Of a stretch of 64,000 nucleotides of DNA, positions 3,652-63,394 are shown piece by piece. The notes under the pieces were generated by a model. The model ran no database searches. It saw nothing but the letters and a program-made list of their open reading frames with translations, and was not told the DNA's origin. This DNA is from Candidatus Poribacteria bacterium (lineage in GTDB: Bacteria > Poribacteria > WGA-4E > WGA-3G). Each line of letters opens with the position of its first letter. Position 1 is the first letter of the stretch. Both the position numbers and the translations under genes were made by a program. The DNA is taken from the NCBI GenBank assembly GCA_965214045.1, contig OZ243935.1:2316994-2380993 (forward strand), given 5' to 3'.

Positions 3652-3739
3652 TTGTGAAGGAAGTGTCGAGGACACACGGTCTTAATAGTGCCAAATTGTG
3701 AAGGAAGTGTCGAGGACACACGGTCTTAATAGTGCCAAA
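3652..3739. repeat. perfect tandem duplication, 2 x 44 bp
   Basis: The unit ttgtgaaggaagtgtcgaggacacacggtcttaatagtgccaaa occurs at 3652-3695 and again at 3696-3739. Confidence 0.85.
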
Positions 3740-3801
3740 AACGTAAGTCCAAATAACGTGCCGGGCTGGATTACGATGAGGATCGTCAAAATCCTAACCA
3801 G

Positions 3802-3828
3802 CCTGACCGAACCGCAAGGAAAATTAGG
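3802..3828 (+). repeat. orphan copy of the CTGACCGAACCGCAAGGAAAATTA core motif (no start codon follows)
   Basis: cctgaccgaaccgcaaggaaaattagg. The same core recurs about 165 bp downstream, in front of thrC. Confidence 0.8.
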
Positions 3829-3889
3829 AATAGGGGTCGGCAGTCAGTAAGCAGAGGATGGGGTTGTAAACCTCGTTTGTGAAGCCTGT

Positions 3890-3998
3890 AGTCCGTAGTG
3901 AAATGGAGGGGTTTTTGCTTGGGCGTTTCCTCCAGATACACGCAAAGGCACGCTAAGGTTCAGACTTGCCTGACCGAACCGCAAGGAAAATTAAAAAT
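3890..3998 (+). promoter_or_regulatory. long-form leader repeat ending in the core motif, upstream of thrC
   Basis: Contains gtagtgaaatggaggggtttttgcttgggcgttt...acgcaaaggcac...cctgaccgaaccgcaaggaaaattaaaaat followed by ATG. Homologous segments occur at 20911-21008 and 44155-44272, with a reverse copy at 54442-54466. Confidence 0.6.
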
Positions 3999-5231: not shown

Positions 5232-5404
5232 GATCCAGTTGAAGATCTGTTTGAGTAGTTCGCTCTATGTGTGGTCTTGAAAAACTGAGCCAGAGACGGC
5301 AAGCCGAAGGCGATATGTCCTGCCTCGCCTCAAGACCCAAGTTCGTAGCGAAGTGGAGAACGACTCGAACACGGAAAGTGTAAAGTTCCAAAGTGCGTTA
5401 CTTA

Positions 5405-5446
5405 CCCGCAAGGTAAAATTAAAAGTCCGCAAGGTAAAATTAAAAA
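5405..5446 (+). repeat. tandemly duplicated core motif (cccgcaaggtaaaattaaaag twice) abutting the recD2 start codon
   Basis: Two adjacent copies. The second is followed at once by ATG at 5447. Confidence 0.8.
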
Positions 5447-7867: not shown

Positions 7868-8021
7868 CGCACTCTTGCGAAGCAATCGCTTTGGTGATCC
7901 TATCATAAACGGAATTACTAAAGTTTGAACAATTTGTATGTTATCATGGGGTACTCTCAAAAAGATGTGCCGATTCTCACAGCGAAGCATCTACGGAGAG
8001 GCGTATGAACATACATACCTA

Positions 8022-8051
8022 CTTCAGCGACCCACAAGGAAAATTAGAAAA
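8022..8051 (+). repeat. core motif copy (cgacccacaaggaaaattagaaaa) abutting an ATG
   Basis: Lies immediately 5' of ATG 8052, the start of a signal peptide. Confidence 0.75.
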
Positions 8052-20812: not shown

Positions 20813-20910
20813 TGAATGGGATGGACGCAATTCTCTTGTAAATGCGGTTTCCCACAGATTGGTGCGGTGGTATCCGATACCGAACGGATAAAAAGGCGCG
20901 CAGCCTCAAA

Positions 20911-21008
20911 CGTAGTGGGAGGATTTTGCTTGGGTATTTCTTCAGGTCTACGCAAAGACACTTGGAAGCACAAACCTACTTCACCGAACCGCAAGGAAAA
21001 TTAGGAAA
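20911..21008 (+). repeat. long-form leader repeat ending in the core motif followed by ATG (short ORF only)
   Basis: gtagtgggaggattttgcttgggtattt...acgcaaagacac...caccgaaccgcaaggaaaattaggaaa followed by ATG at 21009. Only a 14-codon ORF follows. Confidence 0.7.
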
Positions 21009-21043
21009 ATGTCTGTTATTCTTCTCGAAGTCCAAAGCCGCAA

Positions 21044-21129
21044 GCCCGTAATGAAATGGAGGGCGACTCTACGGGAAGGCAGGTAAATGTATAAACCCAC
21101 TTCATCGAACCGCAAGGAAAATTAGAAAC
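21044..21129 (+). promoter_or_regulatory. extended leader repeat (GCCCGTAATGAAATGGAGGGCG...ATCGAACCGCAAGGAAAATTAGAAAC) abutting the pnkp start
   Basis: Homologous to the leaders at 30042-30131 and 34672-34757. ATG at 21130. Confidence 0.7.
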
Positions 21130-29992: not shown

Positions 29993-30041
29993 AGGAAAAT
30001 TAGGCATGCAAGAACCTCTTAAAGGTCGGACAAAGCACGCA

Positions 30042-30131
30042 GCCCGTAATGAAATGGAGGGCGGATCTACGGAAAGGAACGTCAAATTTGAAACCGACCT
30101 GACCGAACCGCAAGATAAAATTAAAAAAGCA
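30042..30131 (+). promoter_or_regulatory. extended leader repeat with the core motif, upstream of the epimerase gene
   Basis: 88 of 94 nt identical to the 34672-34757 copy. Ends ...ccgcaagataaaattaaaaaagca, just before a TTG. Confidence 0.7.
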
Positions 30132-31112
30132 TTGGTCACAGGCGGTGCGGGCTTTATGGGCGCACACGTCGTTAATGAACTTCTCAACCAAGGTAACACA
30201 GACGTTGTTGCCCTTGATGACTTGAGCGGCGGTTTCCGTGAGAACCTGAACCCTGCCGCAACCTTTGTTGAAGGAAGCATCCTCGATGTTTCGCTAATAA
30301 ATCAACTCTGTAAGGAGTATCAATTCGATTATATCTATCATCTTGCCGCGTATGCAGCGGAGGGTCTCAGTCACTTCATCAAACGATTTAACTACCAGAA
30401 CAACCTCATCGGGAGCGTAAACCTCATCAATGCGGCAGTAAACTACAATGTCAAACGGTTTGTGTTCACCTCTTCCATTGCTGTTTACGGTGCGAATCAA
30501 CTTCCAATGCACGAAGCACTTACCCCAATGCCCGAAGATTCCTACGGTATCGCCAAATACGCTGTTGAACAGGAACTTCTTGTCGCAAAACGACTCTTTG
30601 ATCTGGATTATACCATTTTCCGTCCCCACAACGTCTACGGTGAACTCCAGAATATCGGTGACAAGTATCGAAACGTCATTGGTATTTTTATGAATAATAT
30701 TATGCAAGGGGAACCATTAGTTATCTTTGGAGACGGTGAGCAGACGCGCGCCTTCACACATATCGCCGATGTCGCTCCGCATATTGCACACTCTGTGGAT
30801 GTACCTGAAGCATCAGGAGAGGTTTTTAACGTCGGTTCGGATAAGCATGTTTCTGTCAACGAATTGGCAGACTTGGTAATGACGGCGATGGGGAAGGAAG
30901 TCCGTGTTATCAATGTGCGTGCGAGGGAAGAGGTTAAACATGCCTATTGCACACACGAAAAGTTCCACGAGGTCTTTGGAAAGACCTCGGAGGTCACGCT
31001 TCCGGAGGGTTTGGAAAGAATGGCAACATGGACGCAGTCCGTTGGACCACGAGCTTCCACCTTGTTTACTGACATCGAAATTCGCAAAAATCTACCCGAA
31101 AGCTGGAAATAG
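30132..31112 (+). CDS. NAD-dependent epimerase/dehydratase (extended SDR; UDP-sugar epimerase-like)
   Basis: Has the Rossmann motif VTGGAGFMG, a YxxxK block (YGIAKY) and a long C-terminal domain. The start is uncertain. The TTG at 30132 gives a typical M-VTGGAGF N-terminus. Upstream in-frame ATGs lie inside the leader repeat and are unlikely to be used. Confidence 0.7.
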   Translation: MVTGGAGFMGAHVVNELLNQGNTDVVALDDLSGGFRENLNPAATFVEGSILDVSLINQLCKEYQFDYIYHLAAYAAEGLSHFIKRFNYQNNLIGSVNLINAAVNYNVKRFVFTSSIAVYGANQLPMHEALTPMPEDSYGIAKYAVEQELLVAKRLFDLDYTIFRPHNVYGELQNIGDKYRNVIGIFMNNIMQGEPLVIFGDGEQTRAFTHIADVAPHIAHSVDVPEASGEVFNVGSDKHVSVNELADLVMTAMGKEVRVINVRAREEVKHAYCTHEKFHEVFGKTSEVTLPEGLERMATWTQSVGPRASTLFTDIEIRKNLPESWK

Positions 31113-31252
31113 GCAGGAGGTTAGCCGTCAGCAGTCGGTTGTCAGCAGTCGGTGAAGAGCGAATTATGGCATCAGGAAATACGCAACTGCCACAAGAATC
31201 TACCGAAAGCCGAAAGCCGAAAGCCGAAAGCCAGTATAAAACATTTTGGGTG

Positions 31253-32542
31253 ATGGCGATTACCTTTGCTGGAATGGGGTTGAGTCTTCTCGTCCGGGTC
31301 CTATTGATTCCAAAACGTTTCGGATTCGGCGATACAGCGGACGCACTCACCGCCGCATTAACGGTCGTGCTATTGGTGGATACGATTGTCCGAGAAGGTG
31401 CTAAATTCAGTCTTGTTCCAGTCTTTGTTTCAAACGAGAAGGAGATGACTCGCACGGAATACCAACGTTTCACCAATAGTCTCCTAATTTTGTTGCTGGG
31501 TATTGGTTTCGGAATTTTCATTCTGATTGAACTTTTTGCACCGTGGCTAGCTGGTGGATTGTTATCGAAATCGACTGTTGATGTGCAGAGGGTTACGGCA
31601 CTTTTGCGATTTTGTGCGCCTCTCCTTATCTTCGGATGTGGTAGTACTGTTTTGGGGGCTTTCCTAAACAGCCAGCAGCATTTCAAGACGGTTGCCCTCC
31701 GAAATGCTCTACCCGCTGGCGCCGCGGCATTTATATTTCTGTTCCTGTGGAACACGCAGCACCTTGAAAACTGGGTGGTAATGGCATACACAGGAGGATT
31801 TATCGCGTATTTTATATGGCTGTGCATCGGAGCATATCGAACGGGACATCGGTATGAATTTACAGGCGTTTCTGTGGACACGCTGCGTGATCTAAAAGAC
31901 ACGGTTACCCTGCCGACGCTCGGCTTCGGAATACGGCAAATCGTAAACCGCTTACTCGTTGAGGTGTACCTTGTTTCACAACTTGGAAGCGGAGCGATTA
32001 CGCTCTATAAGTCTGCTTTCCAAATCTTTTCAGCACTACAGACCCTTATCGGTATCAGTATTGCGACTACCGGCTTGCCTGATATGGCGGCAGCGGTGGC
32101 ACGCGATCACGACGCGACAAACGATAAAATGGAATTAGGGCGTACACTCAACCGAAACGCACGCACGGCTATCATCATCGGATTTCCAGTAACCTTGATC
32201 TTGCTGGTATTTCACGAACGGATTAGTTCGCTCTTGTATGGGAGAGGAACAATCGATCAAACGTCAATTGAATTGATAGGACAACTCCTCTTTTGGCTCA
32301 GTTCAGGAATGATATTCTCCTGTCTGATACCTGTACTAAATGCCGGACTTTACGCCCAAAAGTCCTATCGCGCTGTTTTCACAAATATGGTGACGATGGC
32401 AATCCTTAATTTTCTGCTGGCGTACGGATTAATGGAAACATGGTGGCTTCTATCTGTCTCGTTGTCTGTATCAATCACCGCGCTTCTTGCTGTTGGGAAC
32501 CTGACGTATCTCCTCCGAAGAACACGGGTATCTTGGTTCTAA
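31253..32542 (+). CDS. MOP-superfamily polysaccharide flippase (MurJ/Wzx-like)
   Basis: About 12-14 transmembrane segments, with a MurJ-like N-terminus MAITFAGMGLSLLVRVLL. The ATG at 31253 is preferred over the track start at 31139, because the upstream stretch is repeat-rich: (CCGAAAG)4 and CAGCAGTCGG copies. The starts at 31166 or 31139 remain possible. Confidence 0.6.
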   Translation: MAITFAGMGLSLLVRVLLIPKRFGFGDTADALTAALTVVLLVDTIVREGAKFSLVPVFVSNEKEMTRTEYQRFTNSLLILLLGIGFGIFILIELFAPWLAGGLLSKSTVDVQRVTALLRFCAPLLIFGCGSTVLGAFLNSQQHFKTVALRNALPAGAAAFIFLFLWNTQHLENWVVMAYTGGFIAYFIWLCIGAYRTGHRYEFTGVSVDTLRDLKDTVTLPTLGFGIRQIVNRLLVEVYLVSQLGSGAITLYKSAFQIFSALQTLIGISIATTGLPDMAAAVARDHDATNDKMELGRTLNRNARTAIIIGFPVTLILLVFHERISSLLYGRGTIDQTSIELIGQLLFWLSSGMIFSCLIPVLNAGLYAQKSYRAVFTNMVTMAILNFLLAYGLMETWWLLSVSLSVSITALLAVGNLTYLLRRTRVSWF

Positions 32543-32616
32543 CTTTTTAATTGGGGAACTCCGATAAAATGGTTGTTGGTTATCGGCTAATAGGCAAAAA
32601 TTAGTTCCGAAATCGT

Positions 32617-32704
32617 AAGCCTGCAACAACGGCGCAGGCGACTTGAGAGAAGGCACTTCAAGCATGAAACCTACTCAATTACTCCGCAAGGTAAGTTTAA
32701 AAAA
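32617..32704 (+). repeat. start-codon cassette repeat (AAGCCTGCAACAACGGCGCAGGCGAC...AGAGAAGGCAC...ATGAAAC...CCGCAAGGTAAGTTTAAAAA)
   Basis: About 90-nt homology to 42250-42337. It includes the ATG at 32664 and the first 13 codons of the sulfotransferase. Confidence 0.75.
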
Positions 32705-33638
32705 TGTTGCGGACTATCGCTACCTCATCGTAGGCGGCACCACGAAGGCGGCGACAACGTCGCTGTTTGCCTACTTGGCGGATCATCCTGCTATTTGCGC
32801 TGCCACTTACAAGGAGACTCGGTTCTTTCTCAGCAGCGATTATCCGCTTCCTTCAAAATACCGGTATAAAGATGATGTTGAGGAATACAATCTTTTGTTT
32901 CCGGATGCTGATGGAACGCAGCTTCGGATGGAATCGACCCCCGACTATCTATATTGTGACGAAGCCCGTGAGAGAATTGCCACATCTCTGCCCGAGGCAA
33001 AGTTAGTCTTCAGTCTCCGTGAACCAATTTCCAGGTTAATCTCTTGGTATCGTTTCGCGAAACAAATTGGTAAGTTGCCCCAAACTTTGAGTTTTGACGC
33101 GTATGTTGAATTGCTTTTCGCTGCTACTAATCGCCATGAAGAGACAGAAGAACAGCACTTGCAAACACTTCAGCAGGGGTGTTATACTATCTATCTGAAG
33201 CACTATTTTAACCGATTCGGTCCAGAGCGTGTCCACATCCTTTTTTATGAGGAACTCGCGGCACAACCGGCGGATGCTATGGCAAAATTGTGTGACTTCG
33301 CTGGTATTGATGCCGGTTTTTATAGCGATTACGGGTTTAAAGTAACGAATCGCACCCAGCAGATGCGAAATTCTGAGTTGCATCAAAAATATAGGGACTT
33401 CCGGTTTCGATTACGACAGTGGACGCATAACAAACCGATCATTCATACCCCGTTGCGCTCAATAAGACGAACAATTGAGCCGCTCTATCTTCGATTGAAC
33501 ACACAGACGGGTGAGAAGGCGCAGATGTCAGAAGAAACACAGCACCGTTTGATCGATTATTACACATCGGATGTTCAGGCTCTCGACGAATTGATTGGGA
33601 AACCGATACCATGGAAAACTTGGGCAAAATCCAGTTGA
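32664..33638 (+). CDS. sulfotransferase-family protein (PAPS-dependent)
   Basis: 5'-PSB P-loop YLIVGGTTKAATTSL. 3'-PB region ...SLREPISRLISWY. Confidence 0.7.
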   Translation: MKPTQLLRKVSLKNVADYRYLIVGGTTKAATTSLFAYLADHPAICAATYKETRFFLSSDYPLPSKYRYKDDVEEYNLLFPDADGTQLRMESTPDYLYCDEARERIATSLPEAKLVFSLREPISRLISWYRFAKQIGKLPQTLSFDAYVELLFAATNRHEETEEQHLQTLQQGCYTIYLKHYFNRFGPERVHILFYEELAAQPADAMAKLCDFAGIDAGFYSDYGFKVTNRTQQMRNSELHQKYRDFRFRLRQWTHNKPIIHTPLRSIRRTIEPLYLRLNTQTGEKAQMSEETQHRLIDYYTSDVQALDELIGKPIPWKTWAKSS

Positions 33639-34534
33639 TGATTGTTGGCGCACAGAAGGCAGGGACCTCCTCACTCCTCCGCTACTTGGCGCAGCATCCC
33701 GATATCCACACGCACGCACAACCAGAGATGACCTTCTTTCTCCAAGCGCGTGAATATACGCGCGGATATGAATGGGCTTTTGGGAAATACTTTGATGGAG
33801 AGAATTCCGACGATGAGATTAAGGATAAACATCTGATCGCTAAGAATGTAATGGTGATGCATTCGCCGGACGTTATGCAACGGATTTATGAACACAATCC
33901 GCATATACACATCGTTGTCCTCCTACGGGAACCTGTGGCACGTGCCTATTCTGCCTATTGGTGGGCTCGGCGGAGAGGGTGGGAGAACATCAAAACTTAT
34001 GAAGAGGCACTGGCTGCCGAGGAAGCGCGCCTGAACGAAGGCTGGTTTAAATGGCGACAATGTGCTTATCAATACAATGGCATCTATTATCCACATGTCA
34101 AGCGTCTGATGACCCAATTTGGCTCCAATCACGTGCATTGTGTCTTAACCGATGATTTGAAGGATAACGCCGAAGCTGTCTGTCAGCAACTCTTTGATCG
34201 CATGGGTATCAGTGCGAATTTCAGTCCCACAATAGGTGAACGGCATAACAAAGCCGCGCTGCCGCGTTCCGAAAAATTCAACTTTTTCTTTACGCAATTT
34301 TTAGCATCCCACAATCCACTCAGAAAAGCGATTCGGAAATTGCTACCTGATGCCACTGCTTACAAGTTGAGAAAAGCCGTTTTGGAGTGGAACGACAAGC
34401 CTGCGGAAAATATGGATTCAGCACCGCCTCCGATTAATCCACAGACGCGTGAACGCCAGATGGCATATTTCAAACCGTTTAACGAACAATTAGTCGAATT
34501 ATTAGGCAGAGATCTTTCGTCTTGGGATTTTTAA
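33611..34534 (+). CDS. sulfotransferase-family protein (heparan-sulfate N/3-O-sulfotransferase-like fold)
   Basis: MIVGAQKAGTSSLLRYL (5'-PSB) and VLLREPVARAYSAY (3'-PB). The start overlaps the previous gene's stop. Confidence 0.7.
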   Translation: MENLGKIQLMIVGAQKAGTSSLLRYLAQHPDIHTHAQPEMTFFLQAREYTRGYEWAFGKYFDGENSDDEIKDKHLIAKNVMVMHSPDVMQRIYEHNPHIHIVVLLREPVARAYSAYWWARRRGWENIKTYEEALAAEEARLNEGWFKWRQCAYQYNGIYYPHVKRLMTQFGSNHVHCVLTDDLKDNAEAVCQQLFDRMGISANFSPTIGERHNKAALPRSEKFNFFFTQFLASHNPLRKAIRKLLPDATAYKLRKAVLEWNDKPAENMDSAPPPINPQTRERQMAYFKPFNEQLVELLGRDLSSWDF

Positions 34535-34610
34535 TTTTTTTTGATTTTACCTTGCGGAGTAACAACGTGCGTTTGGACTTTGACATGCGTTCCTTAAATC
34601 TGAAGAAATA
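34528..34610 (-). repeat. reverse-complement copy of the core motif plus a conserved 3' module immediately after a sulfotransferase stop
   Basis: ttttaattttttttgattttaccttgcgg is the reverse complement of ccgcaaggtaaaatcaaaa... It is followed by agtaacaacgtgcgtttggactttgacatgcgttcc. The same module occurs at 38906-38985. Confidence 0.7.
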
Positions 34611-34671
34611 CCCTATCAAAAACCCTGTGCCGTTGTTGCAGACTACTGTCTTGGGTAAACTAAAACCCATA

Positions 34672-34757
34672 GCCCGTAATGTAATGGAGGGCGGATTTAC
34701 GGAAAGGAACGTTAAACTTGAAACCGACCTGACCGAACCGCAAGGTAAACTTAAAAA
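34672..34757 (+). promoter_or_regulatory. extended leader repeat ending at the ATG of the next gene
   Basis: gcccgtaatgtaatggagggcggatttacggaaaggaacgttaaacttgaaaccgacctgaccgaaccgcaaggtaaacttaaaaa followed by ATG 34758. Confidence 0.75.
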
Positions 34758-36137
34758 ATGATTTACTTTTTAACAGGATACGTTGCTTTTGAAGAGTTTA
34801 TACTGAAGTTTTTACCTGTCAGCGACGCTATCTACTCCTATTTAAGATTCTTCGGCGAAATAATCATCTATATCGCTTTTGGAAGACTCGTTATCCATAA
34901 ACTCCACAGAGGCATTCCTTTTGTAAAGACGGCAATAGACTTGCCGATTATCGGTTTTTACAGCGTTGTCCTCCTCTCAATGCTCATAAATAGCTCGCCT
35001 TTGATAGGGAGTCTTTACAACATCCGACCGTTTGCCCGATATATTGTCCTCTTCTATCTCATCGCGAATTCTGCTTTGTCGGAGAGACGGATTACAACCC
35101 TTTTACGCATAATTCTTGTGGTGGGGGTCTTCCAACTTGTCGCGGGTATAGTTCAGTGGGTGGGCGGACCCGCCGCGTTCGATTTCTTCCTACCTCGCGA
35201 ATCAACACTCACCATCGGTGGGTTCACCAAAGAGTACAGATTGCTTGAACTCGGCAGAGAGATTGGCAGCGTCTACGGTACTTTAGGAGATACCGTAATT
35301 TACGGTGTCTTTATGATTCTTGTTCTTGTTATCTATCTTTCTCGTATTCGGCGACTCGAATATCTGAATCTGCTCGGTGCAGTGATACTGTTTTTCTTTA
35401 TCGCGCGTTCGTATTCACGCGCCGCAACCTTCTCCGCCCTTCTCGCGGGTGGCGCGTGGTTCCTCTTCCACCACGGTTGGAAAAAGACCCTTCGTTTGGC
35501 AGTAGCGACTGTCCTCATCTTTGGAATTCTACTGGTAATGGCAAACCCATTTAACCTTGAATATATAAACCCGCGCAAAGCAAGGGTTGGACTCGTCGGC
35601 AACGTAACAGGCGTATTTTCCGGGTCCTATGTCCGTGTCGCGCAGAAACAGCGGCTCGGAGCGTTGATCGGAAATGTCCCAACGGTGCTTGTTAACAAGC
35701 CGATCTTAGGGTATGGTGCCGACCAGAACAGCACGATTGAGAGACTTAATATGAGCAAACGCTCATTCCTGCTTAAAGTCCTCAGTAAGAACGGCTTCAA
35801 GGATGTGTATTGGGTAGCCATCCTATGTTTCTATGGCATATTGGGACTGGGTTTCTTCGCTTTGATATTTTACCAACTCTTTCGCGCTGCGCTGCGGCTT
35901 TACAAGAGGTCAACCAGTTCATCTTCTGCTATGGAGAGAGGTGCCCCTACCTCACGTGTAACACAACGGATCGCTATTATCATGCTCTGTCTCGTCGCTG
36001 TTACTGTATTTTTACTTTTCTTTAATCGAACGCTTGAATTTCGAGGGTATGGGTTCTACTTCTGGCTCTGTGCCGGTCTCATGTTTGCCAGTGATAGATC
36101 GCTCCCGACCTATAGACCCCTGAGGGTAACATTATGA
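34758..36137 (+). CDS. polytopic membrane protein, O-antigen ligase/polymerase (Wzy/WaaL)-like
   Basis: About 10-12 transmembrane segments with a larger periplasmic loop. Position and topology fit a Wzy-type polymerase or ligase. The call rests on topology and context. Confidence 0.5.
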   Translation: MIYFLTGYVAFEEFILKFLPVSDAIYSYLRFFGEIIIYIAFGRLVIHKLHRGIPFVKTAIDLPIIGFYSVVLLSMLINSSPLIGSLYNIRPFARYIVLFYLIANSALSERRITTLLRIILVVGVFQLVAGIVQWVGGPAAFDFFLPRESTLTIGGFTKEYRLLELGREIGSVYGTLGDTVIYGVFMILVLVIYLSRIRRLEYLNLLGAVILFFFIARSYSRAATFSALLAGGAWFLFHHGWKKTLRLAVATVLIFGILLVMANPFNLEYINPRKARVGLVGNVTGVFSGSYVRVAQKQRLGALIGNVPTVLVNKPILGYGADQNSTIERLNMSKRSFLLKVLSKNGFKDVYWVAILCFYGILGLGFFALIFYQLFRAALRLYKRSTSSSSAMERGAPTSRVTQRIAIIMLCLVAVTVFLLFFNRTLEFRGYGFYFWLCAGLMFASDRSLPTYRPLRVTL

Positions 36138-37813
36138 ATAGCATTCAGCCATCAGCCATCAGCCATCAGCCAAGAAGCGGTCAAGGGTCAGCTGTCAGCA
36201 AAGGAAATCGTGCGATAGGTGAAAACGATGGCAACCGCCACAATGATCGACTGACAGCCGACTGCCGACTGCTGATAGCTATTCTGATGACACTATTTTT
36301 CGCAGTTGGTTGTCAAACCCAAAAATCGCTGCCTAATACGCTGTATTTTGAAATTAATACACGTAACGGGCAACCGCTCCGTCAAGGACTCTACGGCTTC
36401 AACTCAAATATGATAAGCGGTGATTACGGTTACCTTGATGACGATTTTGTCGCCTTAACCAAGGTACTCGCGCCGAAGACCTTACGGTTTCCGGGCGGGA
36501 CGGTTGGAAACTTTTATCATTGGGAACCTGGTGGCTTTTTTGAGGATGAAATGGTATCGACGCTCAGTACGAAACTTAATAGACGGATGAAGGGAAATTA
36601 CGTCAAACTTCAAAGGCGGCGGAACGGTCAAATCCTTTTCGACGACTTTATGCAGTTATGCCACACACTGAATATCACGCCTATTGTTGTTGTAAACTTA
36701 TGGACAGGCACTCCAGAAGAGAGTGCGGCGTGGGTTCGCTATGCGAAAGACAAAGGCTACCAGATTACGCATTGGGAACTCGGTAACGAATACTATCTAC
36801 CGCATTATCTCAACAAATATCCAACCGTTGAAGTCTACATAGCGGAAGCCAAGAAACATGCGACAGCGATGAAAGCTGTGAATCCAGATATAAAGGTATC
36901 CGTCTGTGCGACTCCGATTGCTTTCCATAAGGAGGGATGGTTGGTAAAAAGTTACCAACGGAAATGGGATGAAGGTCTCGCAGCTGATAATAGTTTCTAC
37001 GACGCTTATACCGTCCATGTCTATGCCTATAAGGCTGTCCGAAAAAAAGAGATCGAAGAAATGCGGGGCTACTTGATGGGATGGATTCACTTTGGTGTCG
37101 CGGAGGCTATTGATTACTATGAAAAGTTATTTCCAAATAAAGAGATGTGGATAACGGAATGGAACATCACCAACCCCGCAAACCGAGTCGCAAATACACA
37201 ACTCCATGCGATGTATGTGGGTGATTTTTTCCTGAAAATGTTAGCGATTCCGAACGTCACACAGGCAAACTTTCACGTCATCACGGGTCCCGGGAAAGGA
37301 TTCCCTGTGTTTTCGCCTGTAACACCGCCAACACCGAATACCTTTTGGAAATATGGCGGTGAACCCGAGTCCGATTTCGGTGGCACTATTCGACGTGCTG
37401 TTTATCCTGCTTTTCAACTCATCGGTGAAGCATTCGCTGAGGCTGACACACAGTTCTCCCTTTCAATTCAAAATCAGCCCTTTCTGGCAGGAACCATGGA
37501 GTATAAGGATAAACAGATGCCCGGTATTCAGGCACATGCCATCGGTGGAAATGCCATGGAACATTTGACTGTACTCGTCAGTAATCGGACAAGTGAGCAA
37601 TACGAACCGCAACTCCTAATTGATGGTGAACGTTACAAGGGCAACATCGACTACCGTTATGTTGCTGATGAGAGGCTCAATGCAACCAACGGTGGAAACG
37701 CTGAAATGGAGGGGTCTGGTAAAATCGAAGTCCGTATCCAAGAGTGGCATGGGAAATCGACGGAACTTGTCATCCCTAAAAATAGTTTTGGAATTTTAAA
37801 ATTAAGAGAATAG
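36134..37813 (+). CDS. glycoside hydrolase, clan GH-A TIM barrel (GH39/GH79/GH30-like), probable lipoprotein
   Basis: Catalytic-pair pattern WELGNEY (acid/base) and ITEWN (nucleophile). Lipobox-like LFFAVGC. The N-terminal low-complexity region is encoded by (CAGCCAT)3 and GACTGCCGACTGCTG repeats, so the true start may be later. Confidence 0.6.
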   Translation: MNSIQPSAISHQPRSGQGSAVSKGNRAIGENDGNRHNDRLTADCRLLIAILMTLFFAVGCQTQKSLPNTLYFEINTRNGQPLRQGLYGFNSNMISGDYGYLDDDFVALTKVLAPKTLRFPGGTVGNFYHWEPGGFFEDEMVSTLSTKLNRRMKGNYVKLQRRRNGQILFDDFMQLCHTLNITPIVVVNLWTGTPEESAAWVRYAKDKGYQITHWELGNEYYLPHYLNKYPTVEVYIAEAKKHATAMKAVNPDIKVSVCATPIAFHKEGWLVKSYQRKWDEGLAADNSFYDAYTVHVYAYKAVRKKEIEEMRGYLMGWIHFGVAEAIDYYEKLFPNKEMWITEWNITNPANRVANTQLHAMYVGDFFLKMLAIPNVTQANFHVITGPGKGFPVFSPVTPPTPNTFWKYGGEPESDFGGTIRRAVYPAFQLIGEAFAEADTQFSLSIQNQPFLAGTMEYKDKQMPGIQAHAIGGNAMEHLTVLVSNRTSEQYEPQLLIDGERYKGNIDYRYVADERLNATNGGNAEMEGSGKIEVRIQEWHGKSTELVIPKNSFGILKLRE

Positions 37814-37844
37814 ATAGTTGTTCATAGAGAGGCATGTTATTCTT

Positions 37845-37903
37845 CAAACCGACCTGACCGAACCGCAAGGAATAATTAAAAGTCCGCAAGGAATAATTAA
37901 AAG
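37845..37903 (+). repeat. leader repeat with tandemly duplicated core (ccgcaaggaataattaaaag twice) abutting an ATG
   Basis: caaaccgacctgaccgaaccgcaaggaataattaaaagtccgcaaggaataattaaaag followed by ATG 37904. Compare the duplication at 5405-5446. Confidence 0.8.
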
Positions 37904-38944
37904 ATGGTATTTGTTGTAGGGAATAGTCGCAGTGGTACAACAATGATGGGGCGGATTTTAGGAAAACACCCGAGTATTTATACTTTCGGGGAACTTCACT
38001 TTTTTGGTCAGTTGTGTGCCCCGCCGTTTTCATCGGAATCGCGTAAGGAGGAGATAGAAGAACTCGCCTCACAGTTACATTGTATTCAGCAAGAAGGGTA
38101 TCGCACGCATGGAAACCCACGTCGTTTCTTAAGCAAGGCAGAGTCCTTTCTTGAGAGTCTAATCACTTATCCTGAAACGCAAGCCGCGCTTTTTGAAGCC
38201 TTTCTCCACCATGTTGCTGCTGAGAATGGTGGTGCTATCCCTTGCGATCAAACACCGCGTAATGTCTTTTATATTGCCGATATCCTTCAGCTTTACCCGA
38301 AAGCTCGGATTATCAATATGATCCGTGACCCACGCGATGTGTTATTATCTCAAAAAAGGAAGTGGAAACGCCGGTTTCTCGGCGGGAGTGATCTGCCGAA
38401 AAAGGAAACGTTCCGTGATTGGGTGAACTATCATCCAATAATCATTAGTTACATCTGGCGCACCGCCGTCGCCGCTGCTGAGCAGTTTTTACAACACGAA
38501 CGAGTTACCTCCATCTATTTTGAGGAACTCCTCGCGCACCCTAAGGCAACTGTCAAACATCTCTGTGATTTTGTCGGTATTACTTACACGGATGCAATGC
38601 TCCAAGTACCGCAAGTTGGATCTTCTGTCGCGGAGGACCAGCCTCAGCAACTTGGCATAAATCCGCACCGAGCACACAGTTGGAACAGGAACACAACTGG
38701 CGGAGAGCTCAGTTCCGCTGAGATTTACCTTAACCAGACGATAACTGCAGCTCTCATGAAAACACATAACTATATCCCTGTGTCGGTGCGTCCAAATCTC
38801 GCACATTTGACACTACACCTATTGACCTTTCCTGTAAAATTAGTCGGGGCATTCCTTTTTAACCTTGATCGGATGAAAAGCATCCGTCAAACGCTAAAGA
38901 GACGGATTTTTAATTTACCTTGCAGAGAAACAACGGACGTTTGA
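37904..38944 (+). CDS. sulfotransferase-family protein
   Basis: VVGNSRSGTTMMGRIL (5'-PSB) and MIRDPRDVLLS (3'-PB). The last about 12 codons are encoded by the reverse-orientation repeat module. Confidence 0.7.
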   Translation: MVFVVGNSRSGTTMMGRILGKHPSIYTFGELHFFGQLCAPPFSSESRKEEIEELASQLHCIQQEGYRTHGNPRRFLSKAESFLESLITYPETQAALFEAFLHHVAAENGGAIPCDQTPRNVFYIADILQLYPKARIINMIRDPRDVLLSQKRKWKRRFLGGSDLPKKETFRDWVNYHPIIISYIWRTAVAAAEQFLQHERVTSIYFEELLAHPKATVKHLCDFVGITYTDAMLQVPQVGSSVAEDQPQQLGINPHRAHSWNRNTTGGELSSAEIYLNQTITAALMKTHNYIPVSVRPNLAHLTLHLLTFPVKLVGAFLFNLDRMKSIRQTLKRRIFNLPCRETTDV

Positions 38945-38985
38945 ACTTTGAAGTGCGTTTCTTCAGATATACGTAAAGGTACTTT
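38906..38985 (-). repeat. reverse-complement core motif plus conserved 3' module (second copy)
   Basis: tttttaatttaccttgcagagaaacaacggacgtttgaactttgaagtgcgtttc, homologous to 34528-34610. Confidence 0.7.
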
Positions 38986-39002
38986 ATTTATTAAACCCAC
39001 CT

Positions 39003-39029
39003 CACCGAACCGCAAGGAATAATTAAAAT
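39003..39029 (+). repeat. core motif copy abutting an ATG
   Basis: caccgaaccgcaaggaataattaaaat followed by ATG 39030. Confidence 0.8.
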
Positions 39030-42201: not shown

Positions 42202-42337
42202 ATGAGAGATGAAATCTGCATTATTCACCCGCAAGATAAAATTAAAAACAAGCCTGCAACAACGGCGCAGGCGACAACAGAGAAAGGCACGTGAGAGATG
42301 AAATCTGCGTTATTCGCCCGCAAGGTAAAATTAAAAA
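42202..42337 (+). repeat. start-codon cassette: a partial copy (42202-42248) and a full copy (42250-42337), the latter including the ATG at 42298 and the first codons of the following gene
   Basis: atgagagatgaaatctgcRttattcRcccgcaagRtaaaattaaaaa occurs twice, separated by aagcctgcaacaacggcgcaggcgacaacagagaaaggcac. Homologous to 32617-32704. Confidence 0.75.
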
Positions 42338-44154: not shown

Positions 44155-44272
44155 AAAACCAAGCGTTTTTGCTTGGGTGTTTACGAAATGAAATTATGCC
44201 TTAAGGCGACTCGAGAAAAAAGAACGTCAATATCCAAACCCTGATACTTAACCGCAGGGAAAATTAAAAAAT
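44155..44272 (+). repeat. long-form leader repeat ending in a core-motif variant (accgcagggaaaattaaaaa) not followed by ATG
   Basis: Contains the ccaagcgtttttgcttgg hairpin. Confidence 0.65.
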
Positions 44273-44288
44273 TGGTCGTAAAAACAAA

Positions 44289-44318
44289 TTGGACTTTTGC
44301 GCTTAAAACGGGTATAAT
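44289..44318 (+). promoter_or_regulatory. sigma70-type promoter (TTGGAC-18 bp-TATAAT)
   Basis: TTGGAC at 44289-44294 and TATAAT at 44313-44318. It would give an approximately 245-nt leader before ATG 44571. Confidence 0.45.
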
Positions 44319-44545
44319 ATATATGTAGAACCCAATCTGAAACAGAGACGAACTGTGCTTTGATAGCACAATTTAATCGCCTGAATTTATCTTGCGGTCG
44401 GTCCAGGGCGTTCTTGAAAAGAAGTTTTTCTGTCGCGTCCGTCCGGCGCGATGCTTGGACTACAATTGTTAGCCAAAGTGCATAGCTTGAAACGAAGTGG
44501 AAAGCGGGTATACGGAATAGAATATGAATTCACAGACTCACCTCT

Positions 44546-44570
44546 CTGAACCGCAAGGAAAACTGGAAAA
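44546..44570 (+). repeat. core motif copy abutting an ATG
   Basis: ctgaaccgcaaggaaaactggaaaa followed by ATG 44571. Confidence 0.75.
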
Positions 44571-46492: not shown

Positions 46493-46553
46493 CGCAATCG
46501 TTTTTTCACGACTGGGTTTGAAAATCTGTATGTTTTTTAAAACGCAACCGTGA

Positions 46554-46588
46554 GCCCGTAATGTAATGGTGGAAGGTAAAATTAAAAT
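46554..46588 (+). repeat. truncated leader repeat (gcccgtaatgtaatggtggaaggtaaaattaaaat)
   Basis: Shares GCCCGTAATGTAATGG and the GGTAAAATTAAAA tail with the other leaders. Overlaps the annotated start of the DUF983-like gene. Confidence 0.6.
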
Positions 46589-46925
46589 ACTCGGTAGAAG
46601 TCTGAGATGCAGTTTTCAACTGAAATGTCCGCGGTGTGGTGAAGGGGCACTGTTTCAAACGTATTTCAGGATGTTTACCCACTGTGCAATGTGTGATTTG
46701 AAGTTTGAACGAGAATCCGGTTACTTTATCGGCGCGATGTACCTCAATTACGGCGCGACAATCCTCATCGCTTTTCCAAGTTATTTCCTATTTGAGAAGT
46801 TTACTTCTATTCCTTTCTATGCTAATTTAAGTGTGTGGGCACTATTTTCCGCTATCTTCCCCGTTCTCTTCTACCGTTATTCAAAGAGTTTATGGCTGAA
46901 CTTTGATTACATCTTTTCGTCTTAG
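46566..46925 (+). CDS. small zinc-ribbon membrane protein (DUF983-like)
   Basis: CPRCGEG...C..C zinc ribbon followed by two transmembrane helices. Start uncertain. Confidence 0.5.
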   Translation: MVEGKIKILGRSLRCSFQLKCPRCGEGALFQTYFRMFTHCAMCDLKFERESGYFIGAMYLNYGATILIAFPSYFLFEKFTSIPFYANLSVWALFSAIFPVLFYRYSKSLWLNFDYIFSS

Positions 46926-51059: not shown

Positions 51060-51217
51060 AGATGCCCCTCCGTTTATATTGGCAGTTGGCAGTCGGCAAT
51101 CAGCCGTCGGCGGACCCACTTTCGGTTTTCTGGAACTCTCAAATCAAATAGGGAACTGCTGGTCGTTAGGAAACCCTCTTTGCTGAAAGCCGAAAGCCGA
51201 AAGCCGAAAGCCATAGA

Positions 51218-54441: not shown

Positions 54442-54466
54442 AACACCCAAGCAAAAATCCCTCCAT
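54442..54466 (-). repeat. reverse-complement fragment of the long-form leader repeat
   Basis: aacacccaagcaaaaatccctccat is the reverse complement of atggagggatttttgcttgggtgtt (compare 3903-3925 and 44166-44180). Confidence 0.55.
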
Positions 54467-54586
54467 GTCATTACAGACAGATTTCTGATTTTCTAACTAT
54501 TGAGTTTCTGTAATTTCTTCAGTTCGAACACGAAAATTGTTAAGTTCACAGATACTATGACGTATCTGTAAGGAATAATTAAAAAA

Positions 54587-58356: not shown

Positions 58357-59111
58357 TTAAAACCTTGAGTTTGACAAAATATTTCGGTAAATTGTGTGCT
58401 GTAGATGCATTGACACTTGAGGTGGATGCCGGTGAGATATTCGGATTCCTCGGACCGAATGGGGCAGGAAAGACGACGACAATCAATATGCTGACGGGCT
58501 TACTCCGTCCAACATCTGGCACTGCAACGCTTGGCGGGTATGACATTCAGAAGCAGAGTTTACAGGCGAAAGCGATTCTTGGACTGATGCCGGATACGCC
58601 TCAACTTTATGAAGCATTGAGTGGTAGACAGTTTGTCCGTATGATAGCGGATTTATATGAAGTGCCATCAGAGCAAGCCGAAAATGAGATGGGCGTGCTC
58701 CTTGAGCAACTTGAACTTGCCGATGCTGCTGATGACCAGATCAAAGGGTATTCTTATGGCATGCAGAAGAAGATTCTGCTCATCTCGGTTCTTGTACACC
58801 ATCCGCGAATTCTTTTCCTCGATGAACCGACCAGTGGTCTCGATCCGAGGAGTGCCCGTACTGTCAGGGAAATCTTGCGCGAACGGTGTGAGCGCGGTTC
58901 TACTGTATTTATGACAACACACATCCTTGAAATTGCCGAGCGTATTTGCGATCGCGTCGGTATTATCAGTAAGGGACAACTTATTGCTGTCGGAACCCTT
59001 GCGGAATTGCAGCAGCAGAAGCAGGAATACCACGGACGACCTGTTGATGTTAGCCGTAACCGGACAGAGACACTTGAGGATATTTTTCTTGATCTTACGG
59101 CGGATTTTTAA
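58353..59111 (+). CDS. ABC transporter ATP-binding protein
   Basis: Walker A GPNGAGKTTT. Signature-like and Walker B blocks (ILFLDEPTSGLD). Confidence 0.85.
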   Translation: MIKTLSLTKYFGKLCAVDALTLEVDAGEIFGFLGPNGAGKTTTINMLTGLLRPTSGTATLGGYDIQKQSLQAKAILGLMPDTPQLYEALSGRQFVRMIADLYEVPSEQAENEMGVLLEQLELADAADDQIKGYSYGMQKKILLISVLVHHPRILFLDEPTSGLDPRSARTVREILRERCERGSTVFMTTHILEIAERICDRVGIISKGQLIAVGTLAELQQQKQEYHGRPVDVSRNRTETLEDIFLDLTADF

Positions 59112-59134
59112 TTATACCTTGCGGTTCAGTCAGG
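59105..59134 (-). repeat. reverse-complement core motif at the 3' end of the ABC ATPase gene
   Basis: tttttaattataccttgcggttcagtcagg is the reverse complement of cctgactgaaccgcaaggtataattaaaaa. It overlaps the stop codon of the 58353-59111 gene. Confidence 0.7.
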
Positions 59135-59167
59135 TCAATAGGCAGTCACCAGCCAATTGTTAAAAAG

Positions 59168-63239: not shown

Positions 63240-63368
63240 GGGTATCCTCAAGCATAACGCGTTTATTTTTAGGGTTATTGAAAAATTAAGAATTGAACAG
63301 TGCGCGTCCGCCCAAGCATCGCGCCGGATTGGGTATACGGGGAAGGTCGTTCTCGTAGAATTACCCTT

Positions 63369-63394
63369 ATCGAACCGCAAGGAAAAATTAAAAA
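63369..63394 (+). repeat. core motif copy abutting an ATG
   Basis: atcgaaccgcaaggaaaaattaaaaa followed by ATG 63395. Confidence 0.8.

Follow-up and report, generated by a model that had tools for sequence, protein, structure and literature searches.

ERIC/IRU sequences of the Enterobacteriaceae and Yersinia are intergenic repeats located within transcription units, each built as a single long imperfect palindrome of ~127 nt, and they can influence the mRNA stability and the translation of the flanking cistrons. The REP sequences and BIMEs of enterobacteria and pseudomonads are high-copy intergenic mosaics of few motifs, found in tandem and inverted arrangements, often between co-directional genes, and probably transcribed; in the GTAG-tagged REPs (Di Nocera et al. 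2013, PMC3733652), the stem of a short palindromic unit is immediately preceded, on its 5' side, by an unpaired tag with AG at its end. The Correia elements of Neisseria (CREE/NEMIS) and other bacterial MITEs are non-coding, ~100-150 nt long and present in hundreds of copies, mostly immediately upstream of genes, with a strain-variable presence and an effect on the expression of the neighbouring genes; the Correia elements have terminal inverted repeats, a TA target duplication, sigma-70 promoters and an IHF site (review PMC10969869).

The repeat described here, of which we found no published description, resembles the REPs and BIMEs in its copy number, its intergenic location often between co-directional genes, its mosaic construction, its tagged palindromic unit and its tandem and inverted arrangements, and like them it is probably transcribed. 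With the Correia elements and other MITEs it shares the size, the non-coding nature, the copy number, the position mostly just upstream of genes and the variable presence, and it may likewise alter the expression of the neighbouring genes; with ERIC it shares the location within transcription units. Its palindrome has only 4 + 2 bp and a conserved 13-nt loop, and 70-80% of its copies face a gene start, whereas REPs lie mostly downstream of genes. In contrast to the Correia elements, it has no terminal inverted repeats, no target duplication and no two-hexamer promoter, but supplies, at constant spacing, a signal that resembles a ribosome-binding site; unlike ERIC, it is asymmetric, modular and strongly oriented. 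We know of no REP or BIME whose 3' end is an invariant module placed 12 nt ahead of an ATG, and neither a RAYT nor another transposase was identified for the poribacterial element. The explanation that we favour, with a confidence somewhat better than even, is that of a mosaic intergenic repeat of the REP/BIME/MITE type, phylum-wide in the sponge-symbiont Candidatus Poribacteria, whose 3' end would be a portable translation-initiation region.

In the window (the whole 64-kb stretch of DNA analysed), the core CCGCAAGG followed by an A/T-rich 12-mer has 24 matches, against 1.77 +/- 1.39 in shuffles, and copies occur about once per 2.7 kb. All the copies listed by a previous sequence-only reading are present. 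The long form-A copy 30033..30127 (+), upstream of the epimerase gene, consists of a tag and leader (30033-30041), a hairpin (30042-30062; stem 30042-45 with 30059-62, upper pairs 30049/55 and 30050/54, triloop 30051-53), a middle module (30063-30081), a variable stretch (30082-30092), a conserved block including the degenerate core CCGCAAGA (30093-30115) and an A/T spacer (30116-30127). No ATG follows this spacer; translation likely begins at TTG 30132 (or ATT 30120), and the Pfam epimerase domain begins at residue 42 of the ORF that starts at ATG 30006. At the orthologous locus L087 this copy is missing and the gene start reads ATGAAAAAG. In the form-A copy 34663..34757 (+), the hairpin 34672-34692 (stem 34672-75 with 34689-92) precedes the conserved block with the core CCGCAAGG at 34738-34745 and a spacer (34746-34757) directly followed by ATG 34758 of a Wzy-like gene; L087 retains it, with a GTTC/GAAC stem, a 39-nt loop insertion and a different variable stretch. 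The identity of these two copies, previously given as 88 of 94 nt, was put slightly too high: it is 82/90 ungapped between 30042-30131 and 34672-34761, or 88% over 102 nt (family D3). Head-to-head with the second of them, immediately past the stop codon of gene 33611-34534, lies the reverse-oriented copy 34537..34650 (-), with a GYCTGC...GCASRS hairpin, the TTTTTGATAGGG module and an alternative 3' half.

The related form noted at 21044-21129 is a third form-A copy, 21035..21129 (+; hairpin 21044-21064, core 21110-21117, 12-nt spacer, then ATG 21130 of a Pnkp-type gene), in tandem with the form-B copy 20905..21009 (+), which is characterized by the GGGAGGATTTTGCTTGGGTATTTCTTCAG module and whose ATG 21010 opens no real gene. 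The second long form of the sequence-only reading corresponds to this form B, also found at 3882..3998 (+; core 3979-3986, 12-nt spacer, ATG 3999) and, degenerate, at 44155..44272 (+; core CCGCAGGG at 44252-44259). Compared with L063, the copy 3882..3998 is an insertion inside the ...AAAATTA^AAAAA of an older copy, 3740..3826 (+), with an AGYCC...GGGCT hairpin, whose nearly identical counterpart in L063 abuts the ATG directly. A form-A hairpin with a GTTC/GAAC stem is joined to the alternative 3' half at 5332..5446 (+; ATG 5447), where a tandem duplication of the final 21 nt gives two cores, at 5406 and 5427; L063 has no element at this site and reads GCCTATAATTAAAAAAATGG. The form-A copy 44475..44570 (+) has a GCTT/AAGC stem, a core at 44551-44558 and ATG 44571. 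The C-type copy 32612..32703 (+; hairpin GCCTGC 32619-24 with GCAGGC 32634-39, core 32684-32691) is followed at +12 by an out-of-frame ATG (32704), and the sulfotransferase gene probably starts at the in-frame ATG 32664 within the element; L087 lacks the copy entirely and has an intergenic space of just 24 nt. The element 42203..42337 (+) joins a fragment (42203-42248) to a C-type copy (42249-42337, core 42318-42325) that contains the start ATG of ORF 42298-43965.

Short copies are found at 7988..8051 (+; no hairpin, degenerate core CCACAAGG at 8032-8039, ATG 8052), at 37819..37903 (+; 21-nt tandem duplication of the 3' module with two cores, 37863 and 37884, before a sulfotransferase gene that starts at ATG 37904), at 63349..63394 (+; core 63375-63382, ATG 63395) and, reversed, at 59100..59139 (-), at the 3' end of gene 58353-59111. 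The head-to-head pair 38907..39029 combines a reversed alternative 3' half (38907-38965, -) with a short forward copy (38966-39029, +; core 39010-39017, ATG 39030). Two incomplete copies already listed were confirmed: a truncated one, 46546..46590 (+), in which the 5' half of the hairpin is joined directly to AAGGTAAAATTAAAAT, and a reverse fragment, 54442..54478 (-), which comprises hairpin A with the beginning of the B module and is 86% complementary to 3891-3927.

Every copy is terminated by a near-invariant 3' module, ACCTGACCGAACCGCAAGG plus 12 A/T-rich nt; this obligatory part of the family, AACCNACCTGACCGAACCGCAAGG followed by ~12 A/T-rich nt (WAWAATTAAAAA), is completed in the long forms by optional 5' modules. 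More than 112 stretches contain the 18-mer CCTGACCGAACCGCAAGG; nearly all of them come from Poribacteria MAGs, which represent at least 26 Candidatus Poribacteria species. A same-strand gene start lies within 40 nt ahead of 134 of the 237 copies, and 46/237 are directed at the 3' end of a gene. An element is present in 138 of 492 co-directional junctions (154 copies sense and 29 antisense, that is 84% sense), 14 of 64 divergent ones and 6 of 74 convergent ones. The module abuts the ATG directly in about half of the copies and ends exactly at it in most gene-proximal ones. Among the copies with a long ORF downstream, the AAGG-to-ATG distance is exactly 12 nt in 82, 13 nt in 15 (12 ATG and 3 TTG starts) and 11 nt in 8; spacings of 17-40 nt are rare. 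The invariant 3' end probably acts as a ready-made ribosome-binding site. The poribacterial 16S 3' end is canonical, ...CACCUCCUUUCU. Less favourable to this role are the copies directed at the 3' end of a gene and the position of the AAGG, which is ~2 nt more distant from the ATG than the native Shine-Dalgarno at its modal position and would pair over only 4-5 bp.

The same A/T-rich end may be read as a promoter cassette for leaderless mRNAs, in which the WAWAAT after AAGG would be a -10 box, transcription would begin 7 nt downstream, with the A of the ATG as its first nucleotide, and the invariant block would bind an activator or a sigma factor. The -10 boxes of leaderless genes in Actinobacteria and Deinococcus are TANNNT-like hexamers ~7 nt before the ATG (PMC3898074, PMC4633059). 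In the poribacterial hexamer, the A at position 2 and the T at position 6 never change and the other positions vary, and the T-to-ATG distance is 7 nt in the largest class; some copies have TATAAT (59110), the minus-strand copy at 59124(-) contains TTGACC-N16-TATAAT, GCCTATAATTAAAAAAATG occurs in L063 with no other part of the element, and the use of ATG is near-exclusive (97/103 element-linked genes). However, the spacing follows AAGG and not the hexamer: where the internal ATT is shifted by one base, the 12 nt are kept in 30 of 33 copies. Only about half of the copies have a T at position 1, the -35 position is occupied by AACCNACC, and a sigma-70 scan detected a two-hexamer promoter in no element. 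The genes without an element are Shine-Dalgarno-led, with a canonical peak between -11 and -14 and nothing resembling a -10 box at -12, the true poribacterial promoters observed here are canonical TTGACA-N17-TATAAT, and the divergent intergenic regions are not enriched in elements. We consider the promoter cassette unlikely; the case for a role in ribosome binding is much stronger than that for a promoter. A point against the initiation-region reading is that a canonical promoter is seen downstream of some copies (L018/L036); in the window, the promoter-like site TTGGAC-N18-TATAAT lies at 44281-44310, past the copy 44155..44272.

Comparison of orthologous loci reveals gain, loss and replacement of elements and swapping of their modules. 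For one gene, L019 and L023 read AAAAAGGAGACGAAAAG-ATG and L054 AAAAAGGAAAATTTAAAAG-ATG, and L044 and L047 carry a full element ending in ...CCGCAAGGAAAATTAAAAAA-ATG; here the element overwrote the native Shine-Dalgarno, and the spacer left behind is free of G and offers no other Shine-Dalgarno candidate. At another junction, L018 reads TAAGC-ATG and L036 carries an inserted element that separates the stop codon from the ATG. Such turnover, with the tandem arrays, the nested insertions, the reversed or truncated copies and the presence that varies among close species, could also be that of a selfish REPIN/MITE-like repeat without host function, which would owe its spread to a transposase not seen here or to recombination, and whose position at start codons would result from a preference for A-rich targets and from selection against harmful insertions. 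The A-rich tracts before the ATG of element-less orthologues fit this explanation, as do the likeness of the YAG-tagged hairpin to the GTAG-tagged REPs (PMC3733652) and the core retained in copies that adjoin no gene. The perfect core is kept in ~93% of the copies without a following gene, about as often as in gene-linked copies, so that a part of its conservation may reflect recent copying or gene conversion instead of selection at each locus. Against a selfish repeat, orthologues with 85% identity in their coding flanks share 99% identity in the core, whereas the other parts decay (block 0.82, spacer 0.84, variable stretch 0.66, hairpin region 0.34-0.40); the replacement of a native Shine-Dalgarno, the rarity of the 17-40 nt spacings expected from simple insertion upstream of native sites and the sense orientation at co-directional junctions also make a purely selfish repeat rather improbable.

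CCGC and the preceding 14 nt show the same invariance as AAGG, which a Shine-Dalgarno function would not by itself account for. An 18-nt block more invariant than this role needs, an otherwise accessible and unstructured leader and a CC[GCAA]GG able to form a GNRA-capped mini-hairpin would suit a common leader for a global trans-acting factor, in which the invariant CCUGACCGAACCGCAAGG would bind an RNA-binding protein, a small RNA or a specialised initiation factor and place at least a quarter of the genes in one post-transcriptional regulon. We regard this as doubtful: no candidate factor was identified, the complementarity to the 16S 3' domain, when tested, is poorer for the poribacterial sequence than for that of E. 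coli, and gene conversion among hundreds of copies could equally maintain the invariance.

The 5' module of a long form is a REP-like unit with a YAG tag, a 4-bp stem of covarying letters and the conserved 13-nt loop GNAAYGWARTGGA, or a GCCTGC...GCAGGC hairpin, or a T-rich/G-rich, microsatellite-like module, GTTTTTGCTTGGG...TTTCYYCAG. The YAG-tagged hairpin is the sole module with real covariation and is under structural constraint: 99.6% of its cells are paired, and its 62 double changes compare with 21.8 +/- 3.9 in shuffles, a level reached by 0 of 500. The excess of G.U-type over A.C pairs (13 to 2) points to folding of the sense strand. The sequence-only reading had proposed changes that preserve pairing in two other stems. 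Its ccgtaa/ttacgg stem exists in one copy (34674-34679 with 34697-34702), but 45 form-A copies are paired at 74.7% against 74.8% in shuffles, hence no covariation; its GGAGG/CCTCC-type stem exists as TGGAGG/CCTCCA in an individual copy (3904-3909 with 3929-3934), but the flanks of the TTTTTGCTTGGG module do not covary, their combinations tracking the downstream module type and not the 5' flank. The observation thus stands in part, with the compensatory changes located in a hairpin that it had not named.

A structured cis-regulatory RNA of the 5' UTR (riboswitch, thermosensor or attenuator), as that reading had put forward, could account for this hairpin, its conserved loop and its G.U bias, and is nevertheless very improbable. 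No further conserved pairing was found in the copies, the whole long leaders are no more stable than their dinucleotide-shuffled versions (z from -0.27 to +0.73), the 3' half is no more structured than random, if anything less (z = +0.34), and Rfam returned no match to the element even at E <= 1. The genes downstream number in the hundreds and are functionally unrelated, reversed copies follow genes, and the hairpin module is dispensable, the 5' modules being exchanged, scrambled or missing at orthologous loci. The longer forms differ from the short ones only by additional, unstable hairpin modules, and a riboswitch or thermosensor reading of them is not supported. The other proposal of the sequence-only reading, a MITE family supplying promoters and ribosome-binding sites, agrees in essence with the evidence, with the corrections that terminal inverted repeats and target duplications are absent, that the ribosome-binding role is the better supported of the two and that one small hairpin is under structural constraint; its interpretation is partly supported.

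In the model of a portable translation-initiation region, the element would be transcribed as the 5' end or the intercistronic leader of the downstream gene, and its AAGG(A) would serve as the Shine-Dalgarno by pairing with the 16S tail, the C/A-rich and A/U-rich flanks keeping the initiation site unstructured. The 5' modules undergo gain, loss, nesting and exchange through insertion or recombination, and may serve the propagation of the element, or the processing and stability of the mRNA.

The leader-like repeats noted in this stretch belong to one mosaic family, defined by a core, CCGCAAGG, and the A/T-rich 12-mer that comes after it, with 24 core matches in the window against 1.77 ± 1.39 in dinucleotide shuffles. 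A full copy opens on its 5' side with a short leader, roughly CAAAACC, then the tag NYAG and a hairpin module; 3' of this module come GGATMTACGGARAGGCAC, some 10-15 variable nucleotides, AACCNACCTGACCGAACCGCAAGG and WAWAATTAAAAA, very often followed by ATG. The block located 5' of AAGG is CCTGACCGAACCGC, the invariant 18-nt block of the element is CCUGACCGAACCGCAAGG, and in an alternative 3' half GATTTGAGGAACGCACGTCAAAGTCCAAACGCACGTTGTTWCT stands ahead of CCGCAAGG. The long copies differ in their optional 5' modules. In form A the hairpin module is G-NNN-[GNAAYGWARTGGA]-NNN-C, with a stem of 4 bp and two upper pairs around a 13-nt loop, and among 45 copies the four positions of the tag are G in 28, T in 33, A in 43 and G in 45, the last G being the first base of the stem. 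In form C the module is GCCTGC-loop-GCAGGC, with a 6-bp stem and loops that lengthen through short added units (CCCAAGCAAAAAC and CGCAGAAAYA, for example). Form B contains a 25-nt GTTTTTGCTTGGGYRTTTCYYCAG module placed 3' of the 3' arm of the hairpin, where it substitutes for CGG and enters after ...GGAGGG in form A and after ...GCAGG in form C. Short forms devoid of the hairpin, tandem whole elements and nested variants also exist, and the last 12-30 nt of the element are frequently duplicated in tandem (5406/5427 and 37863/37884). One nested variant has an insert of 39 nt, AATTATGCCTTAAATGGCATAATTTGTCTTWGCTTTACA, that itself contains a TTATGCC/GGCATAA hairpin and behaves as a mini-module within the loop of hairpin A; it recurs in four comparison loci from other Poribacteria (L087, L047, L019 and L095) and is partly present at 44183-44205 of the window.

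The sequence-only reading had given 88 of 94 identical positions for the 30042 and 34672 copies. Their likeness is real, and the figure has to be corrected to 82 of 90 without gaps (30042-30131 and 34672-34761), or 88% over 102 nt in the direct-repeat entry D3. Every other copy that it had named was recovered: a third one of form A (21044-21129), a shortened one (46546-46590) in which the 5' half of the hairpin is joined straight to AAGGTAAAATTAAAAT, two of form B (3882-3998 and 20905-21009), one that is degenerate (44155-44272), and a reverse fragment (54442-54478, inverted repeat I5). In the interval studied here, the elements sit between genes of a polysaccharide cluster coding for an epimerase, a MurJ-like flippase, four sulfotransferases and a Wzy-like protein. 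Elsewhere in the window, 21130-23697 codes for a Pnkp-type RNA repair enzyme that combines kinase, phosphatase and ligase domains, and 27386-29992 for a large protein bearing FG-GAP/ASPIC, dockerin and Por_Secre_tail domains, whose dockerin- and calcium-binding-like coding repeats account for the direct repeats D8 and D11, outside the element family.

An exact scan for the 18-mer CCTGACCGAACCGCAAGG, with one genome per species, found it in more than 112 stretches, nearly all of them from Candidatus Poribacteria MAGs, which among the 80 listed represent at least 26 species. The four non-poribacterial matches among the matches listed are without the A/T-rich spacer and correspond to the chance level for an 18-mer. 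The window is thereby placed in the Poribacteria and the element spans the whole phylum; the comparison loci pooled with the window (944 kb) hold about 250 copies. No copy was found in viral contigs, searches of the literature on poribacterial repeats yielded no description of the element, and the exact-protein look-ups for the window genes, in other assemblies and in transcripts, returned no record of these proteins.

The nature of this family had been ascribed to a structured cis-regulatory RNA, possibly riboswitch-like, on the basis of pairing stems and of base changes that preserve them. When the 45 form-A copies are aligned (alignment A1), RNAalifold retains nothing beyond the form-A hairpin and the invariant CC[GCAA]GG. 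This hairpin is well supported: 99.6% of its cells are paired, control stems slid along the alignment drop to 27-59%, and double-change cells number 62 against 21.8 ± 3.9 in shuffles, none of 500 shuffles being as high. C-G and U-A pairs switch in three of the four lower pairs and in one upper pair, giving at least ten stem versions, among them GCCC/GGGC, GCTT/AAGC, GTCC/GGAC, GCCT/AGGC, GCTC/GAGC, GCAC/GTGC, GTTC/GAAC and GTTT/AAAC, and the excess of G.T-type over A.C pairs (13 to 2) hints that folding takes place on the sense strand. The stems that had been singled out are real in single copies and do not appear to be features of the family. The cells of the ccgtaa/ttacgg stem are paired at 74.7%, against 74.8% in shuffles, and an upstream CCGTAG/CTACGG alternative covaries no better; for the GGAGG/CCTCC pair around the TTTTTGCTTGGG module of form B the case is weak, the type of 3' flank (CCCCTAG or CTTCAG) tracking the downstream module and not the 5' flank. 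The 3' half is no more stable than its shuffles (z = +0.34 for the sense strand) and no pair of columns covaries in it over 107 copies, so that a hairpin or any other pairing in the variable stretch or the 3' half was discarded. The five long forms of the window fold with z values of +0.66, -0.27, +0.16, +0.61 and +0.73, and Rfam gave no match at the gathering score over the whole window and none at E ≤ 1 over 29900-39200. A riboswitch-type RNA, in which several conserved and covarying helices would be expected ahead of genes of related function, is thus not supported: there is a single small hairpin, z values are close to zero and the downstream genes are diverse (epimerase, Wzy-like protein, sulfotransferases, Pnkp and others). 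In screening, a few changes that look compensatory can make an abundant repeat pass for a riboswitch.

The constant part of the family is its 3' module, which commonly lies at a fixed distance from a start codon. In copies followed by a long ORF, AAGG lies 12 nt ahead of the ATG in 82 cases and 11 nt in 8; a start is found at 13 nt in 15 copies (12 ATG and 3 TTG), and distances of 17-40 nt are scattered cases. A same-strand gene start lies within 40 nt ahead of 134 of the 237 classifiable copies, 46 of the 237 face the 3' end of a gene on the opposite strand and 8 lie within genes. Genes in the loci were called crudely as the longest non-overlapping ORFs. In these loci, picked for carrying the element, so that the rates are valid as ratios only, 28% of co-directional junctions are occupied (154 sense against 29 antisense copies), 22% of divergent ones and 8% of convergent ones.

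In the main rival to the reading that we favour, the hexamer of the A/T-rich spacer would be the -10 box of leaderless transcripts starting at the A of AUG, and the invariance of its A2 and T6, with the T located 7 nt ahead of the ATG, is what such a promoter would display. In 41 copies the hexamer is 7 nt from the ATG and in another 30 it is 8 nt away, with AAGG remaining at 12; when the hexamer is shifted by one base, AAGG is still 12 nt away in 30 of 33 copies. Moreover, there is no -35 box, the two-hexamer scan for sigma-70 promoters gave no match in any element, the genuine promoters seen here are canonical and divergent regions are not enriched for elements, all of which weakens the promoter reading. 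An ECF-type promoter was also considered and rejected, no GG-N10-GC indicative of sigma-54 was seen by eye, and sites of the CsrA GGA type do not suit the family, since about half of the copies have AAGGT instead of AAGGA and no other GGA motif is invariant. Promoter-like sites do occur directly 3' of the A/T-rich end of some elements: TTGGAC-N18-TATAAT at 44281-44310 of the window and TTGACA-N17-TATAAT at about 2330-2360 of locus L018 and 1300-1330 of locus L036, where the site precedes a DtxR-like gene (MLTHAAEDYLKSIY). At such sites the A/T tail of the element occupies the position of an UP element. A conserved small RNA behind these sites was dismissed, as L018 and L036 share the DtxR-like gene and the window site is unrelated.

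In the reading that we favour, the 3' module would be a portable translation-initiation region, transcribed as a 5' or intercistronic leader. Initiation in the host is of the ordinary Shine-Dalgarno kind: in 565 element-free genes, GGAG, GAGG, AGGA and AAGG peak at -11 to -14 and no -10-like peak exists at -12. Poribacterial 16S genes, retrieved with what we take to be the POR1130 primer sequence (6 of 10 also carry the POR389 primer site), end in ...GGATCACCTCCTTTCT, and AAGG(A) is complementary to the UCCUU of the 16S tail ...CACCUCCUUUCU, allowing a pairing of 4-5 bp. AAGG is the only purine-rich motif ahead of the ATG in element-linked genes, its 12 nt to the ATG fall inside the 5-13 nt range of Shine-Dalgarno motifs, it is at most 2 nt off the native Shine-Dalgarno position, it stands where the native AAGGAG was at an orthologous gene, and it is surrounded by unstructured C/A-rich and A/U-rich sequence. 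It is because of this pairing, this position, this replacement of a native site and these unstructured flanks that the module is read as an initiation region; the putative Shine-Dalgarno function of AAGG, like the mode of spread, is what we infer from sequence. The idea of a longer pairing between the invariant block and the 3' domain of 16S rRNA was rejected. The block resembles what we take to be the complement of E. coli 16S 1520-1534 (13 of 15 positions and one indel). The poribacterial CCTGCGGCTGGATCA fits less well (12 of 15 and one indel), and for a continuous duplex the order relative to AAGG is wrong.

The comparison of orthologous loci reveals that the element comes and goes. L087 is collinear with 28767-36070 of the window and keeps the head-to-head pair at 34537-34757, with a GTTC/GAAC stem for GCCC/GGGC in form A, a 39-nt insertion in loop A, an expanded loop in the reverse copy and a wholly different variable stretch. 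The 30042 and 32612 copies are missing from L087, which has an element ahead of the MurJ-like gene, a place taken by other repeats in the window. The copy at 3882-3998 is an insertion relative to L063, inside ...AAAATTA^AAAAA of an older copy, and L036 has a full element between a stop codon and an ATG where L018 has TAAGC-ATG. One gene could be traced through five species: it is preceded by native AAAAAGGAGACGAAAAG-ATG in L019 and L023, by AAAAAGGAAAATTTAAAAG-ATG in L054 and by a full element ending in CCGCAAGGAAAATTAAAAAA-ATG in L044 and L047. Since L023 and L047 are nearest by flank identity and L019 is the outgroup, L047 gained its element recently, and this gain swapped out 31 nt including the native Shine-Dalgarno sequence, replaced by 213 nt. 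No target duplication was found at the clean presence/absence pairs L018/L036, L063/window and L023/L047. In 40 pairs of orthologous elements, with 85% identity in their coding flanks, the identity reaches 0.99 in the core, 0.82 in the preceding block, 0.84 in the spacer, 0.66 in the variable stretch and, in gapless register, 0.34-0.40 in the hairpin region; therefore the 3' module is held constant at each locus and the 5' modules of the long forms are labile. The comparison with L063 also uncovered a perfect 44-nt tandem duplication (TTGTGAAGGAAGTGTCGAGGACACACGGTCTTAATAGTGCCAAA) at 3652-3739, just 5' of the 3740 element and single in L063, as well as an extra gene of about 190 codons in L063 (1990-2800, against 5232-5300 of the window, where it is missing), placed between the orthologues of 3999-5231 and 5447-7867, which looks like a Uma2/DUF820-type endonuclease.

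The proximity of the elements to genes has consequences for gene calling, since start codons are misplaced by gene callers where ORFs cross elements or begin inside them (30006, 32643 and 42298). Two copies, at 32664-32703 and 42298-42337, have a GAGAAGGCAC...ATGAAA middle whose ATG is in frame with the downstream ORF (the sulfotransferase at 32643-33638 and the ORF at 42298-43965), the usual ATG at +12 being either missing or, at 32704, in another frame that stops after 9 codons. These copies would encode the first 13 or so residues of the ORF, MKPTQLLRKVSLK...; the L087 sulfotransferase orthologue begins with MGLTKN... and has no element. The ORF starting at ATG 30006 crosses the whole 30042 element (30006-30135), with the epimerase domain from residue 42. 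In L087 the epimerase orthologue starts ATGAAAAAGACAGTGTTAGTC, an ATG lost in the window (ATTAAAAAAGCATTGGTC), where the start is probably TTG 30132 or ATT 30120.

In its behaviour the element is close to mosaic repeats of the BIME/REP type and to gene-proximal MITEs such as the Correia elements. A GTAG-tagged REP is a palindromic unit of 20-40 bp, one end of which bears the unpaired tag GTAG. The usual place of these REPs is 3' of coding regions, where the neighbouring ORFs are unidirectional or convergent (PMC3733652). The element differs from them in facing gene starts within 40 nt in 134 of 237 copies and gene 3' ends in 46, and in occupying 8% of convergent against 28% of co-directional junctions. 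In REPIN-RAYT systems, a cognate RAYT, a Y1 HUH transposase, is flanked by repeats, and two inverted REPs make up the mobile unit. Here single, oriented copies predominate over a minority of head-to-head pairs (34537-34757 and 38907-39029), and a RAYT/IS200-like motif search over 763 ORFs in 944 kb from about 30 genomes, a sample in which a single-copy gene would rarely be found, had an amidohydrolase-like protein as its sole match. The alternative of a MITE family, also put forward at the outset, agrees with the presence/absence polymorphism of L087 and L063 against the window; the defining traits of MITEs are missing, as no terminal inverted repeat joins the ends of single copies and no target duplication was seen. 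A review of MITEs lists promoters, IHF sites and post-transcriptional effects among their functions, and the words "ribosome" and "start codon" are absent from it (PMC10969869). Because the hallmarks of MITEs and the location of REPs are lacking and this review has no ribosome-binding role, we class the element as an oriented mosaic repeat whose invariant end gives, throughout the phylum, a putative ribosome-binding region set at a constant distance from the ATG. Other intergenic short repeats are present, namely CAGCAGTCGGTTGTCAGC-type units and (GAAAGCC)x4 (31122-31153, 31205-31233, 36250-36281, 51077-51106 and 51185-51213, with (GAAAGCC)x4 identical at 31205 and 51185), and similar CAGTYRGT runs adjoin elements in many loci, for instance L093, L107 and L087. 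Since palindromes with a proper GTAG tag occur in the window (CTTGTAGGAGSGRACTCCGATTCCCGAC at 1030-1058, 1129-1157 and 22395-22423) and in L025 and L095 (GTAGGTTGGGTT...AACCCAAC and GTAGGTCGGGTA...ACCCGAC), Poribacteria also have classical-looking REPs.

CCGC and the 14 nt located 5' of it are as invariant as AAGG, and copies that no gene follows preserve the core to a similar degree. Gene conversion among copies, a requirement of propagation or a trans-acting factor could each be the cause. In the boldest reading, to which we give little credence, a self-propagating cassette would have overwritten the native ribosome-binding sites of at least a quarter of the genes across the phylum, and CCUGACCGAACCGCAAGG would be kept for a dedicated trans-acting factor, whether RNA-binding protein, small RNA or specialised initiation component. 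If this were true, it would amount to a genome-wide translational control through a common leader, with no described bacterial counterpart. If the 3' module works as a ribosome-binding site, repeats would have driven a genome-wide standardisation of translation signals in Poribacteria, with one 30-nt leader placed before hundreds of unrelated genes and kept in many species. Such a family would provide a clear example of repeats domesticated into expression signals and a natural portable leader for synthetic biology in an uncultivated phylum, and the shared leader could permit a global control of translation in these sponge symbionts.
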